Virus record (IMG/VR): IMGVR_UViG_3300029498_000126
Direction: 5' to 3' (one strand)
Source of the DNA: a virus
Taxonomy: Duplodnaviria; Heunggongvirae; Uroviricota; Caudoviricetes
DNA: 8,691 nt
Of the stretch, positions 1 to 8,691 are shown piece after piece (the stretch's first letter is position 1; each line of letters opens with the position of its first letter). The notes beneath the pieces are model-generated. The model made no database searches, had not been told where the DNA came from, and saw only the letters and a program-made list of their open reading frames with translations. The translations under genes were made by a program, and so were the position numbers.

Positions 1-435
1 ATGAAAAAAGAAAACCGCCCCGGACAGCAGGCGGCTAACATAGATATTCGCGGATCTGATGTTACGCCACCAGCGCCCACCACACAAGCGCCACGCCGCA
101 CACCGAAGAAGCACCGCGCCCGCGTCTATATGCTACGCACTGGGGTAGAGGGATGGACAGAAAACGACATTCTGCGCTACTGCCGCCTTTCGTCTGGAAG
201 GAACTACGCCAGCGAGTTAGAACGCAGGCTTGATATTCAGTTAGAGCGTATCGACGAAAAGAATCCCGACGGGATCGGGTCACATTTACGCTATCGCTTT
301 ACCGGGCGCGGTGACGTTCTAAAAGTTATTCGGCTTGTGAACCATAACGCCGACGCTGGGGGCTATCAGGGACTTTCTCAGCCTGAAATTGCCGACATTC
401 TCAATCTATACCCGGACAATCTCACCGCCGCCTAA
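1..435 (+). CDS. hypothetical protein (144 aa), basic/Pro-rich N-terminus; possible DNA-binding regulator
   Basis: Complete ORF from ATG at position 1 to TAA at 433-435. N-terminal stretch is basic and proline-rich (PRRTPKKHRAR). Followed 12 bp later by the next gene with a GGAG RBS in between, suggesting co-transcription. No family recognised by eye. Confidence 0.45.
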   Translation: MKKENRPGQQAANIDIRGSDVTPPAPTTQAPRRTPKKHRARVYMLRTGVEGWTENDILRYCRLSSGRNYASELERRLDIQLERIDEKNPDGIGSHLRYRFTGRGDVLKVIRLVNHNADAGGYQGLSQPEIADILNLYPDNLTAA

Positions 436-3648: not shown

Positions 3649-3990
3649 ATGATTACTAAAAATTTCCGACTGAATGCGCTGGCGAATAAGTATGCGTCGG
3701 CACTGTATAACCACATTACCTCCACCAGCGGCGGGGACTATTTCATGGTTGATGCGGACGGCCTCGCCGTCCGTGTGGAAATCGTCAATGGAGTAAAAGG
3801 CGTTCGCAGCCTGATCGATAGCTACACACTGGCAGCCATGAAAGTGTTCTACCCGCAGTGGGAAACCGTGGGGATCGAGCTTCTTGATCGTTGCGTCACT
3901 AAGGACGGATTGACTGACGTCGGGCGCGAGATATGGCAAAGCATGATTAATGATATGGGCGCGACCGTGGCAGGAGGCAACCATGCGTAA
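3649..3990 (+). CDS. hypothetical protein (113 aa), translationally coupled to the primase
   Basis: RBS GAGGATGG upstream of ATG 3649. Stop TAA 3988-3990 overlaps the primase start (ATGCGTAA). Confidence 0.5.
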   Translation: MITKNFRLNALANKYASALYNHITSTSGGDYFMVDADGLAVRVEIVNGVKGVRSLIDSYTLAAMKVFYPQWETVGIELLDRCVTKDGLTDVGREIWQSMINDMGATVAGGNHA

Positions 3991-6742
3991 TATCGACCTT
4001 ATCCGCGAAGTGACCAGCGCCGCAGCAGGGCGCTGGCCTTATGTGCTGGCTGGATTGTCTATCGACGTGCCTGATTCATCGCGCCGCCATTCTCCATGCC
4101 CTGCATGTGGTGGAAAAGACCGTTTCAGATTCGACGACAACGGGCGCGGTAGCTTTATCTGCAACCAGTGTGGCGCTGGTGACGGGCTGGATTTAATCAA
4201 GCGGGTTAACAACTGCGACACTACGGAGGCGGCACAGCTTGCCGCTGACGTGCTGGGTATTGATTACCGGGCAGCGCAAACCGACCCGGTGGCAGCGAGC
4301 CATAGAAGAGAGCAACTGGAAGCTGACCGCCAGCAGCGTGAGCAGGAGCGCCAGAAACAGGCAGCAGAGGACGCAGAGCAGCGAAGGGCTACGTTTGCCC
4401 GTCTGTATGCCGGAATGCGCCAGAGTGTCACACAGGGCGAATCTGATTACCTGCAATCAAAAGGGCTGACCGGGTTTAATTACCCGGTTATGTCTGATGG
4501 TTCGCTACTCCTGCCGCTGGTGGATGAATCCGGCGCAGTAGTGGCGGCGCAGACCATCACGCCGCAGGGAGATAAACGACTCCTGACAGGTTCAGCAAAG
4601 CGCGGGGCATATCACGCCGTAAACGCGCCAGAATCGCCGCAGAGCGTTTTAATTGCCGAGGGGCTGGCGACGGCCCTTTCAGTTCACCTGATGCGCCCGG
4701 ACGCGCTGGCAGTGGCAGCAATTGACGCGGGCAACCTGCTACCCGTTGCCGAAGTGATGCGCCGGAAGTATCCACAGGCACAAATAATCATCGCCGCAGA
4801 CAACGACCACCACCAAAACGGAGAAGCCAATACAGGCAGGGAGGCCGCAGAGAAAGCCGCCTTGTCCGTGGCTGGATGGGTGGCACTGCCGCCGACAGAC
4901 TACAAAGCCGACTGGAACGACCACCACCAGCAAAACGGGCTGGAAGTCGCTACGGCTGCGTTTAACGACTCGATGTACCAGATTCAAGGGGAAGCCGTTA
5001 AACCACGATTGCAGGCCATTGAGGGCGGTAAAACTGACCATCCAGAGAAAGACCCACTAAAACCCCACATTGAGAGCCGAAAAGATGTCGTTTTCTGGGT
5101 AACGCCGAAGGTGGACAAGGAAAGCGGGGAGATCATCAACGCTGAAAGCTGGTTATGTTCACCGTTGGAGGTTATCGGCACGGGACGCGACGACAAAGAT
5201 CAGTATCTTATTATCTCATGGCTGGCATTTGGTGCAGGCATACCGACAACAGCGGCTATCCCGCTGGCTGATATTGGCGAGCGTGAAGGCTGGCGCACCC
5301 TGAAAGCTGGTGGCGTCAACGTCACAACGAAAAACAGCCTACGGGCGATTCTTGCCGACTGGTTACAGCGAAGCGGCTCGCGTGAATTGTGGCGCGTTGC
5401 TCATGCTACAGGCTGGCAGTGTGGGGCATACATCATGCCGGACGGGGAAATCATCGGCACACCTCAGCGGCCTGTTTTGTTCAGCGGGCGCAGTTCAGCC
5501 GCTGCCGGGTATACCGTAGCAGGAACGCCTGAAAGCTGGCTTAACAGTGTTGCGCGGCTGGCATACGGCAACTACGCGATGATGACAGGCATCGCCGCAG
5601 CACTGGCAGCGCCATTAATCGGGGTGGCAGATCGTGACGGATTCGGGATTCATTTTTATGAGCAATCGAGCGCCGGGAAAACAACCACGCAGAACGTGGC
5701 GAGCAGTCTTTACGGCAACCCTGATGCCTTGCGCCTGACGTGGTATGGGACGGCGCTGGGGCTGATAAACGAGGCCGCCGCCCACAATGACGGGCTGATG
5801 CCGCTGGATGAAGTCGGACAGGGCGCAGACCCGATAAGCGTTTCTCAGTCTGCCTATGCCCTGTTTAACGGCGTGGGGAAATTGCAGGGAGCAAAGGAAG
5901 GAGGCAACCGGGATCTGAAACGCTGGCGCACCGTGGCAATCAGCACCGGGGAAATGGATTTAGAAACGTTCATCGCCACCGCAGGACGCAAGACAAAAGC
6001 GGGGCAACTGGTGCGACTGCTGAATATCCCGCTGAGTAAGGCGGTGCGCTTTCATGAGCACCAGACAGGGAAAGATCACGCCGACGCGCTGAAAGACGCT
6101 TACCAGCACCATCATGGCGCTGCCGGGCGGGAGTGGATTAGATGGCTTTCAGACCACCAGCAGCAGGCGATTGATGCCGTTCGTGAGTGTGAAGCCCGAT
6201 GGCGAAGTCTAATCCCTGCTGACTATGGGGAACAGGTTCACCGTGTAGGGGCGAGGTTCGCCATTCTGGAGGCCGCTTTACTGCTGGGTGGCGTGGTTAC
6301 TGGCTGGGATGCTCAAACGTGCCGGGATGCGATACAGCACACCTATAACGCATGGCTGAAAGAGTTCGGCACGGGGAACAAAGAGCACCAGCAGATCATC
6401 GAGCAGACGGAGGCGTTTTTAAATGCCTATGGGCTGAGTAGATTCGCGCCGCTGGGTTATGACCCGCGCGATTTACCCATCCGTGATTTAGCCGGGTACA
6501 GGAAGAAGGGGAACCACGACGGCGACCCGATAATTTTCTACACCTTCCCGGCAACATTTGAGCAGGAGATCGCACGGGGTTTTAATGTCAGGCAGTTTGC
6601 CGAAGTTCTCAAGAATGCAGGAATGCTAACACCACCAACGAGCGGGCGAGGTTATCAGGGGCGGGTAAGGGAAGGAGGGCGGCAAATTCGCGTTTATGTG
6701 CTCAACTTCATGGATGAGGAAAGCAGCCAGCCAGAAGAATAA
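3983..6742 (+). CDS. P4-alpha-like DNA primase/helicase (zinc finger + Toprim primase + P-loop helicase/ori-binding C-terminus)
   Basis: 919 aa from ATG 3983 with AGGAGG 7 nt upstream (the track ORF begins 11 codons earlier at 3950). Cys motifs CPACGG...FICNQCG at about 4097-4175. Charged Q/E/R-rich linker. Toprim-like acidic motifs (LIAEGLATALS; IIIAADNDHHQNGEANTGREAAEKAA). Walker A SSAGKTT (~5671-5690) and Walker B LMPLDEVG (~5800-5820). Architecture matches satellite-phage P4 alpha-type primase-helicases. Confidence 0.9.
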   Translation: MRNIDLIREVTSAAAGRWPYVLAGLSIDVPDSSRRHSPCPACGGKDRFRFDDNGRGSFICNQCGAGDGLDLIKRVNNCDTTEAAQLAADVLGIDYRAAQTDPVAASHRREQLEADRQQREQERQKQAAEDAEQRRATFARLYAGMRQSVTQGESDYLQSKGLTGFNYPVMSDGSLLLPLVDESGAVVAAQTITPQGDKRLLTGSAKRGAYHAVNAPESPQSVLIAEGLATALSVHLMRPDALAVAAIDAGNLLPVAEVMRRKYPQAQIIIAADNDHHQNGEANTGREAAEKAALSVAGWVALPPTDYKADWNDHHQQNGLEVATAAFNDSMYQIQGEAVKPRLQAIEGGKTDHPEKDPLKPHIESRKDVVFWVTPKVDKESGEIINAESWLCSPLEVIGTGRDDKDQYLIISWLAFGAGIPTTAAIPLADIGEREGWRTLKAGGVNVTTKNSLRAILADWLQRSGSRELWRVAHATGWQCGAYIMPDGEIIGTPQRPVLFSGRSSAAAGYTVAGTPESWLNSVARLAYGNYAMMTGIAAALAAPLIGVADRDGFGIHFYEQSSAGKTTTQNVASSLYGNPDALRLTWYGTALGLINEAAAHNDGLMPLDEVGQGADPISVSQSAYALFNGVGKLQGAKEGGNRDLKRWRTVAISTGEMDLETFIATAGRKTKAGQLVRLLNIPLSKAVRFHEHQTGKDHADALKDAYQHHHGAAGREWIRWLSDHQQQAIDAVRECEARWRSLIPADYGEQVHRVGARFAILEAALLLGGVVTGWDAQTCRDAIQHTYNAWLKEFGTGNKEHQQIIEQTEAFLNAYGLSRFAPLGYDPRDLPIRDLAGYRKKGNHDGDPIIFYTFPATFEQEIARGFNVRQFAEVLKNAGMLTPPTSGRGYQGRVREGGRQIRVYVLNFMDEESSQPEE

Positions 6743-6766
6743 TCTTTTTTCACATACGTAGTTTTA

Positions 6767-7027
6767 GTGTTGTCTCAGTTGTCTTTGTTGTCTCATTTTG
6801 TAAGTTACATTGATTTATAAGGATTTTATTTTAATTTCTGAGACAACATTGAGACAACATTTAGCCATTTTGAGACAACAGGGCGAACGTGTGTTTTTAG
6901 TCCGGCAGGCAGTGAGACAACATTTATGCCGGGTGAGACAACACGAAATTGCAAATGTTGTCTCAGCAAAACCCAGACGTGGCGCGGCCTGTAGAGCCGT
7001 GAGACAACAAAGACAACAGAGACAACA
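6767..7027. repeat. iteron array (TGAGACAACA / TGTTGTCTCA), probable origin of replication
   Basis: Core GAGACAAC on + at 6840-6847, 6851-6858, 6872-6879, 6914-6921, 6935-6942, 7001-7008, 7019-7026 (plus AGACAAC 7011-7017). Reverse complement GTTGTCTC at 6769-6776, 6787-6794, 6957-6964 (plus GTTGTCTT 6778-6785). Spacings of 11, 21, 42, 21 and 9 bp suggest helical phasing. Lies just 3' of the primase/helicase gene. Confidence 0.75.
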
Positions 7028-7057
7028 CTATTTTTGTTTATATACAAAAAAATCTGG
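7028..7057. other. AT-rich tract adjacent to the iterons, candidate DNA unwinding element
   Basis: ctatttttgtttatatacaaaaaaatctgg is strongly AT-rich and abuts the last iteron. Confidence 0.4.
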
Positions 7058-7130
7058 CGAAGGTGTCCCACAATAAGACGGTGCCGGGCAATCTTCATTA
7101 GCAAAACTAATAATTCGAGGTATTCGCAAA

Positions 7131-7592
7131 ATGACAGCACAGATATCAGCCTACGGGCGGCTGGTGGCAGATCCCCAGACCAGAACGACAAACAGCGGCG
7201 GCAGCATGACAATGGGGCGTTTAGCGGTGGCACTGCCTTGCCATGCAGCAGAGGGCGGAGAGGTTACTTTCTGGCTGGGCGTGGTGGCATTCGGCAAACA
7301 GGCCGACGCACTGGCAGGACACGTTAAAGGCGATTTAGTCAGTGTTGCCGGAGCGATGCAGGTCAATCAGTGGGCGGGCAAGGATGGCGGTACACAGCAG
7401 GGGTATCAGGTAGTAGCCGACAGCGTGATCAGCGCCAGAACGGTACGCCCCGGCGGGAAGCGGGCCGAGTCAGTCAAAGCAAGTGGAGCCAGCAGGGGCC
7501 ACAAAACGCAATCCGCGCCGGGATGGGAGCTATATAACACCCCTGATGATTTTGACCAGCGCCCACCATTCGACGATGAAACGCCATTCTGA
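7131..7592 (+). CDS. ssb: single-stranded DNA-binding protein (SSB family, OB fold) with acidic C-terminal tail
   Basis: 153 aa. N-terminal region follows the SSB pattern seen in E. coli SSB (G.L..DP..R...GG...; W..VV.FGK.A....KG..V...G......W). C-terminus ...DDFDQRPPFDDETPF closely resembles the E. coli SSB tail ...DFDDDIPF. GAGG about 11 nt upstream of the ATG. Confidence 0.8.
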   Translation: MTAQISAYGRLVADPQTRTTNSGGSMTMGRLAVALPCHAAEGGEVTFWLGVVAFGKQADALAGHVKGDLVSVAGAMQVNQWAGKDGGTQQGYQVVADSVISARTVRPGGKRAESVKASGASRGHKTQSAPGWELYNTPDDFDQRPPFDDETPF

Positions 7593-7603
7593 GGGGGGTG
7601 AAC

Positions 7604-7915
7604 ATGGTAAACGACAGCAAAGCTGAGGATCTGGAAGCAAAAGGGCTGTACCGACGCGCCGCCGCGCGATGGATGGAAGTCATGCTGTTATGCACCGAGG
7701 ACGATGATCGGGAATGGATAAAGCGCCGCCGTGAAACGTGTCTGGAGAACGTGAAGCGCCCGCCCGTGAAGGTTGAGGACTTTGGCGACCTGCATAAAGC
7801 TGTCACCGAAACTCAGCACCGCATGGGGATAGCGCAACCGAACGGTAACGCCTTCCGGTTAAATGGCGGCAAGAGGCAACGGCAGACCACCAGCGGGGGC
7901 GATGGTTCGCAGTAA
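7604..7915 (+). CDS. small regulator, PerC-like (103 aa)
   Basis: ATG 7604 with GAGGGGGG RBS directly upstream (the track ORF starts at a GTG at 7598). N-terminus MVNDSKAEDLEAKGLYRRAAARWMEVM...REWIKRRRETCL resembles what I recall of PerC-family activators, which are common in enterobacterial prophages and satellites. From memory, not a search. Confidence 0.45.
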   Translation: MVNDSKAEDLEAKGLYRRAAARWMEVMLLCTEDDDREWIKRRRETCLENVKRPPVKVEDFGDLHKAVTETQHRMGIAQPNGNAFRLNGGKRQRQTTSGGDGSQ

Positions 7916-8313: not shown

Positions 8314-8691
8314 ATGAAAAAAAATAGCCAACAATCAAGATCGGGATGGGGTGGCAAGCGGAAAGGCGCAGGCGCACCATTGGGCAATACTAATGCCGTC
8401 AAACATGGCGAACGCAGTCGGCGGGCATTCTTCCCATTTGAGGGGGGAGAGGCGCTTTCTCCGCTGGTGCGAAATCGTGCAAGAAACCTCATGCTGGCTG
8501 AGAGATACGGGCTATTACTGGCGAATAATCCGACGCCGGGAACAGAAGAATGGCGCGAGATGACATTGATTAACGGACTCATGGGGCTACATGCCGACAG
8601 AATCGCACGGCTTGAGCTGAGATTAGCGAGAGCCGTTTCAATGCAAGCAAGGCGGGATCTGCGAAGGGTTAAAAAAAGCGGCGCATGTTAG
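8314..8691 (+). CDS. hypothetical basic protein (125 aa); possible small-terminase-like or packaging-associated DNA-binding protein
   Basis: Complete ORF ending with TAG at the window edge. Basic glycine-rich N-terminus GWGGKRKGAGAPLGNTNAVKHG is reminiscent of DNA-binding N-termini seen in some phage small terminase subunits. Helical Arg-rich C-terminal half. Functional call rests on that motif and the position after the dyad-rich region, so it is tentative. Confidence 0.4.
   Translation: MKKNSQQSRSGWGGKRKGAGAPLGNTNAVKHGERSRRAFFPFEGGEALSPLVRNRARNLMLAERYGLLLANNPTPGTEEWREMTLINGLMGLHADRIARLELRLARAVSMQARRDLRRVKKSGAC

Follow-up and report, generated by a model that had tools for sequence, protein, structure and literature searches.

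What kind of replicon is implied when the gene for a large primase-like protein is followed directly by a dense array of short repeats lying in both orientations? This question is raised by IMGVR_UViG_3300029498_000126, a viral record (Caudoviricetes) that was analysed over its full length of 8,691 nt (the window), and in particular by the gene at 3983–6742, here named pri-rep, and by the repeats (iterons) that follow it. An original prediction, made by a model from the letters of the window, had taken the pair for a P4-alpha-like primase/helicase with its own iteron origin, as in P4-type satellites and in enterobacterial phage-inducible chromosomal islands (PICIs). The region is read here, with a probability of roughly 85%, as the replication module of a Gram-negative PICI. 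What was computed in this work comprises the domains of the protein (Pri-Rep), the array of repeats and how far it is conserved, the co-variation between residues 885–905 and the iterons, a winged-helix prediction and the island context.

The window was scanned with Pfam, NCBIfam and PHROG and by sequence match to PDB entries, and the gene and its domains were located as follows.

3983–6742, + strand: pri-rep gene, encoding a 919-aa fused primase and initiator-helicase (open reading frame (ORF), Pfam and PHROG)
4082–4189, + strand: zinc ribbon Zn_Ribbon_Prim, residues 34–69 (PF08273, E 1.4e-15)
4646–4939, + strand: Toprim primase core Toprim_3, residues 222–319 (PF13362, E 9e-15)
5114–5917, + strand: DUF927 ATPase/helicase core, residues 378–645 (PF06048, E 6e-48)

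The start codon of this ORF agrees with that given by the NCBI pipeline for the homologue in Escherichia coli D5, and PHROG 1139 ('DNA primase') covers Pri-Rep from end to end (E 4.6e-177). The zinc ribbon contains the cysteine motifs CPAC (at 39) and CNQC (at 60), and the Toprim core contains EGLA (at 226) and DND (at 273). The DUF927 core, which scores 164 bits against a cut-off of 22.6 for PF06048, carries a Walker A-like motif (SSAGKTT, 562–568) and a Walker B motif (LMPLDE, 605–610). The cysteine zinc finger, Toprim core and Walker motifs that had been predicted for the 919-aa protein were thus all placed on it. The description of the protein as P4-alpha-like held for its N-terminal primase only: residues 7–331 share 35% identity with P4 alpha (E 6e-45, pairwise BLAST), and PF08273 and PF13362 were found in both proteins, but no significant alignment was obtained by the same comparison past residue 331. 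None of the domains D5_N, DUF5906 and Pox_D5, all three of which are present in P4 alpha, was found in Pri-Rep by Pfam at E ≤ 0.01; the helicase/initiator half contains DUF927 instead. Of the two kinds of domain that had been expected from a hidden Markov model search, Toprim was therefore recovered and the D5_N/superfamily 3 (SF3) helicase was not. Membership of the whole protein in the P4 alpha family was rejected, as domain scans and pairwise BLAST limit the common part to the primase third. No plasmid Rep family was found in Pri-Rep by Pfam or NCBIfam. There is a weak NCBIfam match to the model of Cch1, a helicase of the staphylococcal cassette chromosome mec (SCCmec), and the nearest solved relatives by sequence are PDB 8tch (E 1e-7) and PDB 5dgk (E 0.0045). 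As judged from its domain content, Pri-Rep is a P4-alpha-type primase joined to a DUF927 initiator-helicase of the type found in SCCmec Cch and in the Rep of the Staphylococcus aureus pathogenicity island (SaPI) SaPIbov1. Its current database name is only 'TOPRIM and DUF927 domain-containing protein', and no record of the exact 919-aa sequence was found in the assembly index.

The repeats downstream of pri-rep form two modules, A (6768–6880) and B (6913–7053), with the following parts.

6768–6795, − strand: left arm of origin module A, three inverted iterons with 9-bp spacing (repeat search)
6796–6838, no strand: AT-rich tract of 43 bp with 16% GC, a candidate DNA-unwinding element (composition)
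6839–6880, + strand: right arm of origin module A, three direct iterons with spacings of 11 and 21 bp
6913–6965, no strand: first part of origin module B, three phased iterons (+, +, −) with 21-bp spacing
6966–6999, no strand: GC-rich spacer with 68% GC (composition), conserved across iteron classes
7000–7053, + strand: direct triplet of module B (7000–7027, 9-bp spacing) and AT-rich tail (7028–7053)

The iteron TGAGACAACA is present in nine exact copies and one copy with a single mismatch, all within 6768–7027, whereas 0.54 copies are expected by chance in the window and none of 200 shuffled sequences reached 10. Its 7-mer core, AGACAAC, occurs 12 times in 6769–7026 and once elsewhere, against 0.89 expected in the whole window. 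The cores start at 6769, 6778, 6787 and 6957 on the minus strand and at 6841, 6852, 6873, 6915, 6936, 7002, 7011 and 7020 on the plus strand, giving start-to-start spacings of 9, 9, 54, 11, 21, 42, 21, 21, 45, 9 and 9 bp. The first iteron lies 25 bp beyond the stop codon. About 12 copies in both orientations, some 25 bp past the stop, is what the original prediction had described. Its helically phased spacing applies to the central copies (11, 21 and 42 bp), but both flanking triplets are spaced at 9 bp. The AT-rich tract that it placed after the array does exist (7028–7053; 26 bp, 12% GC), but the longer tract of 43 bp within the array had gone unmentioned, and it is this internal tract at 6796–6838, not the tail, that agrees with the published origin layout considered below. 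The internal tract has the inverted triplet on its left and the direct copies on its right, a position conserved in relatives, and the position of the left arm of module A is kept in relatives of every iteron class.

The spacer at 6966–6999, which reads GCAAAACCCAG..TGGCGCGGCCTGTAG, is constant between iteron classes, whereas the other spacers vary; a weak terminator-like hairpin lies within it on the minus strand. The element at 7000–7053 is conserved, also in the distal copies of module B described below, and pairs with 6742–6795 as a 54-nt inverted repeat (78% complementary). When the origin region was folded as single-stranded DNA, a z-score of −8 was obtained, which reflects only the inverted iterons. 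No convincing sigma-70 promoter was found on the plus strand of 6600–7250, and the numbers of promoter and terminator predictions were at chance level. Two ORFs that overlap the repeats (6810–7076 on the plus strand and 6826–7233 on the minus strand) were rejected as genes because the spacers contain indels in relatives, so that the positions of the repeats, and not the reading frame, are conserved. In the gap that separates the stop codon from the first iteron there is a DnaA-box-like sequence, TTTTTCACA (6746–6754), which is the sole match to the pattern TTWTNCACA in 6701–7140. The surrounding TCACATACGTAG is kept in the window and in three relatives (L005, L008 and L012) and has diverged in the others.

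Homologues of Pri-Rep numbered 1902. Homologous loci were collected by scanning one genome per species, which yielded 76 loci from Enterobacterales and beyond (29–97% protein identity). The set analysed comprises 65 sequences including the window (35–97% protein identity); small Klebsiella/Raoultella 'plasmid' records were left out of the protein comparisons because of frameshifts. In 47 of the 65, the densest 7-mer cluster of the 7–19-kb locus begins 10–87 bp past the stop codon of the primase gene, mostly at 24–37 bp. As for the remaining loci, the peak lies 153 bp past the stop in L052, 13 loci have 3–6 copies there, and four (L051, L054, L057 and L073) have no repeats directly after the gene. 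The positions and orientations of the 12 sites are nearly constant across relatives (example offsets, with orientation: 27−, 36−, 45−, 99+, 110+, 131+, 173+, 194+, 215−, 260+, 269+ and 278+), and the core sequence switches in concert at all sites. At least eight classes of iteron core were distinguished.

AGACAAC: the window, L004–L007 and L017
AACCAAC: most loci
AACCGAC: L019, L044, L045, L059 and L060 (also L043)
CGGGTTA: L018, L027 and L037
TACCCGA: L046
GACACAC: L049
TAACCCA: L056
TATCCCA: L061 and L067 (weaker in L065 and L069)

These classes were compared with the C-terminal end of Pri-Rep, for which two features were delimited.

6437–6718, + strand: predicted C-terminal winged-helix domain, residues about 819–912 (structure model)
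6635–6697, + strand: specificity-tracking segment, residues 885–905, PTSGRGYQGRVREGGRQIRVY, running into the wing (co-variation)

Pairs of proteins with different iterons reach 89–91% identity over residues 1–850, yet share 52–71% in residues 885–905; conversely, pairs with the same iteron fall to 54–55% identity over residues 1–850, yet share 82–91% in this segment. When the iteron class was predicted from the nearest neighbour, the prediction from residues 885–905 was correct for 41 of 43 and that from the primase domain for 30 of 43. The same pattern is seen around the window, where L017 (same iteron) is 65–74% identical over residues 1–340 and 86% identical in the last 69 residues, and L008 and L009 (other iteron; the L008 origin belongs to the GAACCAAC class) are 80–94% identical over residues 1–850 and 67–70% identical in the last 69. 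This co-variation with the C-terminal end supports the view that the iterons behave as cognate binding sites of Pri-Rep, as had been proposed when they were called 'cognate' to the primase: across the 65 sequences, the class tracks the adjacent segment.

A structure model was built for residues 640–919 from an alignment of 56 homologues at 32–84% identity. The last 100 residues were modelled confidently (predicted local distance difference test scores of 83–95), with helices at 856–863 and 869–878 and with wing strands at 893–897 and 900–909 that form a β-hairpin, and the C-terminus of Pri-Rep is accordingly predicted by the model to be a winged-helix DNA-binding domain. The suggestion of a DNA-binding candidate at the C-terminus thus gained a predicted fold, but its extent is about 95 residues (819–912) rather than the ∼150 first proposed. 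The best structural matches of the whole model are SaPIbov1 Rep (8tch) and SCCmec Cch (5dgk), at 11–17% identity; the predicted winged helix itself matches the C-terminal parts of 8tch and 5dgk as well as TcpK, an accessory protein of the relaxosome whose structure was determined in complex with oriT DNA. In the model, the discriminating motif takes in the first strand of the wing as well as the turn of the hairpin. It reads RGYQGRV--RE[GD]GRQIRVY in the TGAGACAACA class and RGYQRKS-PRI[DN]GRQ.NVY in the TGAACCAACA class. As the central dinucleotide is the only difference between TGAGACAACA and TGAACCAACA, we infer that the recognition helix would read the common TGA..CAAC part and the wing the variable bases.

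A check made after the fact came from one of the loci without repeats after the gene, that of Serratia (L057). By its wing motif this protein falls in with the GAACCGAC class, to which the single iteron cluster of the 18.7-kb locus, found 7.6 kb upstream of the gene, also belongs. The intervals concerned are L057:373–475 and L057:10706–11126, and the distant cluster resembles module A (two inverted copies, an AT-rich tract and three direct copies), with no primase C-terminus before it. In a contig of Yersinia pekkanenii (L034), three iteron clusters of the same class were found (6154–6415, 10736–10997 and 11917–12208), and the protein match there is 3.9 kb long rather than 2.8 kb, which may reflect a duplication or a fault of assembly.

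The two modules of the window are separable. In relatives whose primase gene is followed by no more than six iterons, another module of the same class is located 2–7 kb downstream.

L058, 17682–17802: distal module B copy
L062, 11482–11603: distal module B copy
L021, 17954–18065: distal module B copy
L036, 15574–15695: distal module B copy
L011, 16677–16776: distal module B copy

The distal copies consist of three inverted iterons, an AT-rich spacer in place of the GC-rich spacer at 6966–6999, a direct triplet and an AT-rich tail that aligns with 7000–7053 of the window. The cargo between the split modules includes genes for a Beta_protein (PF14350), an SLT-domain protein and a PemK toxin. Distal module B resembles a second origin unit, being equipped with inverted copies, an AT-rich spacer and a direct triplet of its own. 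Since module B can be distal and one relative (L082) has only module A beside the primase gene, the minimal origin may consist of module A alone. Possible roles of module B are those of a second origin unit, of a control locus or of a counterpart to the ori/crr pair of P4. Taken together, these data can be read as a scaffold of 12 sites whose specificity is rewritten as a unit, combined with separable A and B units that are split by cargo; this combined reading is tentative, and the odds are somewhat against it. The iteron alleles, at least eight in number and each paired with its own version of the 885–905 segment, may constitute a natural recognition code.

It is also conceivable that Pri-Rep binds the repeats, chiefly those of module B, mainly for control, i.e. 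for titration or handcuffing, incompatibility, or autoregulation of ssb-perC. The location of module B just upstream of ssb, its separation from module A by 2–7 kb in relatives, the occurrence of module A alone next to the primase gene of L082, and a parallel in the additional iterons that iteron plasmids carry would all fit such a role. However, distal module B looks like a second origin unit, no convincing sigma-70 promoter was found on the plus strand of 6600–7250, and the layout of module A matches SaPI and PICI origins that have been tested. A primarily regulatory array is therefore regarded as unlikely, and the preferred interpretation of the region as the replication module of a PICI rests further on its genomic setting.

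All ORFs of the window in which a domain was recognized lie on the plus strand, and those that follow the origin are these.

7131–7592, + strand: single-strand DNA-binding protein (SSB) gene ssb, assigned to the replication module (PF00436, E 5e-14)
7598–7915, + strand: PerC-family gene after ssb, with an additional weak match to the ANR negative regulator family

The genes of the window match a ∼12-kb island at the yicC-dinD locus of E. coli D5 (L001), the closest complete relative in E. coli; this island contains, in order, genes for an integrase, a hypothetical protein, AlpA, AntA (antA), a DUF4222 protein, an Icd-like protein, several small proteins, the primase, SSB and PerC. The tyrosine integrase gene comes after yicC, and the island extends over ∼12 kb to dinD; the window does not reach the island ends. 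The AlpA gene (L001:11783–12001) was recognized by its Phage_AlpA match (E 5.6e-8), and the next gene of L001 (12001–12435) is the counterpart of the first ORF of the window (1–435). The yicC-dinD locus has been catalogued as the site of the PICI EcCIRM13514 (PMC6092414). The primase of EcCIRM13514 (L083, E. coli RM13514) is a 607-aa 'DNA primase family protein', a different allele; since L083 and L001 occupy the same site with different primase alleles, replication modules are exchanged between islands that share an insertion site. The gene content and the insertion site (int, alpA, antA, pri-rep, origin, ssb and perC at yicC-dinD) support placing the window in a small island with integrase and AlpA genes, of the PICI type of enterobacteria, and the PICI layout named in the original prediction was found in this form. 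None of the 33 complete E. coli genomes in which the origin occurs at ≥99% identity has it annotated.

Several further observations were made in and around the window. The annotation of L001 lists neither structural nor lysis genes, and none was found in the window by general domain scans. The last ORF (8314–8691) reaches the final base of the window without a stop codon and was assigned to no family; its one match, to a model of the terminase small subunit, is faint (E 1e-3). Two Rfam matches exceed the gathering score, both on the plus strand: isrK at 1731–1807 (63 bits) and C4 antisense RNA at 1832–1919 (80 bits). isrK and C4 are immunity RNA families of the P4/P1 type. Both matches fall inside the long ORF at 1395–2378, in a region whose counterpart in D5 bears the annotation 'Icd-like', and positions 1731–1994 are ∼90% identical to many Shiga toxin (Stx)-converting phages. 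L082 (NZ_CP148430.1) is a 12,152-bp circular 'plasmid' from an E. coli chicken isolate, with genes for an integrase, AntA, a DUF4222 protein, an Icd-like protein, a 918-aa TOPRIM/DUF927 primase, which is followed by six TGAACCAAC iterons, and PerC; it looks like the circular form of a related island. Related Raoultella/Klebsiella 'plasmids' of 17.8–21.8 kb contain many broken reading frames.

Such records raise the alternative that the element is no satellite but a small plasmid-like element able to integrate, or what is left of a prophage, and that it is maintained autonomously by this replicon. Close relatives have been deposited as circular 'plasmids' of 12–22 kb, including the 12,152-bp E. 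coli record, and no recognizable capsid or packaging gene is present in the window or in the D5 island. On the other hand, int, alpA, antA, the icd-like gene, pri-rep, ssb and perC match PICIs that were shown to be mobilized by phages, the attachment (att) site is a catalogued PICI site, and the circular records, several of which are frameshift-ridden, may be excised replicating islands recovered by assembly. This alternative is accordingly given little credence.

The PICI interpretation can be placed among characterized systems. The origins of Gram-negative PICIs are located 3′ of the gene for the initiator and consist of two iteron sets around an AT-rich region; four Pri-Rep alleles have been reported in E. 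coli (PMC6092414), and EcCICFT073's pri-rep-ori region supports plasmid maintenance (Fillol-Salom et al. 2018, PMC6092414). DUF927 and zinc-ribbon proteins have already been counted among PICI primases in another study. Because the origin layout, the maintenance by EcCICFT073 and the DUF927 PICI primases are all published, the type of feature is already known; a pri-rep gene followed by an iteron origin is the published PICI layout, and the allele and iterons of the window are a member of it for which no characterization was found in the literature searched. The window shows the same organization, a pri-rep gene and then an origin with iteron sets on either side of the 43-bp AT-rich tract, and also resembles EcCICFT073 in having int, alpA, genes in one direction, an intergenic iteron origin, ssb and perC. 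Unlike in the window, however, the Pri-Rep of EcCICFT073 has 584 aa with D5_N, DUF5906 and Pox_D5 and no Toprim domain, and its iterons are of the CTGTCTACC/GGTAGA type. Homology between the two Pri-Reps was rejected, no similarity being detectable, and iteron sequences of the window class were not found in the supplements of the PICI paper.

The nearest solved relatives of Pri-Rep are of staphylococcal type. SaPI Reps are self-loading 3′–5′ initiator-helicases (Qiao et al. 2022, PMC9371898), whose C-terminal winged helix binds 6–12 iterons located right after rep around a central AT-rich region, and the Rep2/SaPIbov1 Rep/Cch type is MCM-like (superfamily 6), not SF3; a hexameric 3′–5′ helicase and ATP-independent origin binding and melting are known for SaPI Reps and Cch (PMC9371898). 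SaPIbov1 Rep, SaPI2 Rep2 and Cch (PMC9371898, PMC7581432) share with Pri-Rep the DUF927 ATPase core and the C-terminal winged helix, which in Pri-Rep is a predicted one, and SaPIs share with the window the 6–12 opposed iterons around an AT-rich tract directly after the gene. However, SaPIbov1 Rep and Cch are Gram-positive proteins that show only the 11–17% identity given above in structural alignments, and SaPIbov1 has a separate pri gene, whereas the window protein contains a fused P4-type Toprim primase. In addition, SaPI iterons are 5–6 bp long versus 7–10 bp in the window, and the window origin, unlike SaPI origins, has two modules and terminal 9-bp triplets. Iteron plasmids (pPS10, F, R6K, RK2 and P1) likewise have repeated initiator sites beside an AT-rich unwinding element, and extra iterons that may act in control, but their Reps are small, have two winged-helix domains and recruit host DnaA and DnaB, whereas the initiator of the window is itself helicase and primase.

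P4 resembles the window in that alpha also combines a zinc ribbon, a Toprim domain, helicase and origin binder in one polypeptide, with an iteron region (crr) right after the terminator of its gene; P4 has two iteron regions per element, and some relatives of the window likewise have two separated iteron modules. On this basis, the window could be a true P4-type replicon, with an orthologue of alpha (Toprim, SF3 D5-like helicase and winged-helix binder) and an ori/crr pair, a view to which the 35% identity of the N-terminal 330 residues and the isrK and C4 matches lend some weight. The rest of the evidence makes it very improbable: DUF927 takes the place of the SF3 D5-type helicase and Pox_D5 C-terminus, alignment ends at residue 331, the repeat region directly after alpha is crr and the annotated ori lies 4.5 kb away, the crr repeats (e.g. 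TGTTCACC/GGTGAACA) differ from the window iterons, and the context, from which sid, delta and psu are missing, is that of a PICI. It is hardly credible that the repeats are instead sites for another protein or process (cos/pac packaging, partition, AlpA or PerC) that lie after pri-rep incidentally, for although Gram-negative PICIs have cos sites and regulators and four loci have no repeats behind the gene, the iteron class tracks the 21-residue segment of the adjacent protein and not the rest of the locus, the array begins 24–37 bp past the stop in most relatives, and opposed iterons around an AT-rich tract are the layout of tested origins (PMC6092414, PMC9371898).

Several points weigh against the interpretation of the region as a PICI replication module. 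Adjacency of the iterons to the gene is not obligatory, because the cluster of the Serratia locus lies 7.6 kb upstream. The co-variation (41 of 43 versus 30 of 43) rests on discordant pairs, and its statistics ignore phylogeny. The role of module B (6913–7053) counts among these points, as does the search for the ends of the D5 island with the published att cores (GAGCAGATTCAA and ATCGAGTAAG) and for direct repeats, which recovered the left copy only. No helper phage is known. The validated Gram-negative replicon, EcCICFT073, has an unrelated Pri-Rep, and transfer of function thus depends on the remote homology to SaPIbov1 Rep and Cch (11–17%); a literature search found no experiment on a Gram-negative Pri-Rep of the Toprim-DUF927 type.

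By analogy with SaPI Reps, Cch and EcCICFT073, which supply the model for binding, melting, self-loading, polarity and priming and for the dependence on a helper, replication of the PICI is proposed to run as follows. After induction and excision of the island, the 12 TGAGACAACA iterons would be bound by Pri-Rep through its winged helix, and protein seated on the opposed iterons on either side of 6796–6838 would melt the AT-rich tract. The DUF927 helicase would then load without a separate loader and unwind in the 3′ to 5′ direction, the fused Toprim domain would lay primers, and the SSB of the island (7131–7592) would coat the displaced strand.

The finding by itself mainly corrects the annotation of the origin and of the protein, and its interest comes chiefly from the initiator–iteron co-variation and from the split-origin variants. 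The combination of a P4-type primase with a staphylococcal-type helicase (SaPIbov1 Rep/Cch) in one allele links the replication modules of P4, SaPIs and SCCmec. The matched initiator/iteron pairs, eight classes on one scaffold, together with the 21-residue segment that predicts the class, could guide work on how winged-helix initiators read DNA, help to predict the compatibility of satellite replicons in Enterobacterales and inform the design of orthogonal PICI-based delivery vectors. If the recognition code is real, it would set which co-resident islands cross-activate or exclude each other's replication; if the origin is indeed split, with 2–7 kb of cargo between its parts as in the ori/crr arrangement of P4, it would double as a hotspot for cargo insertion.

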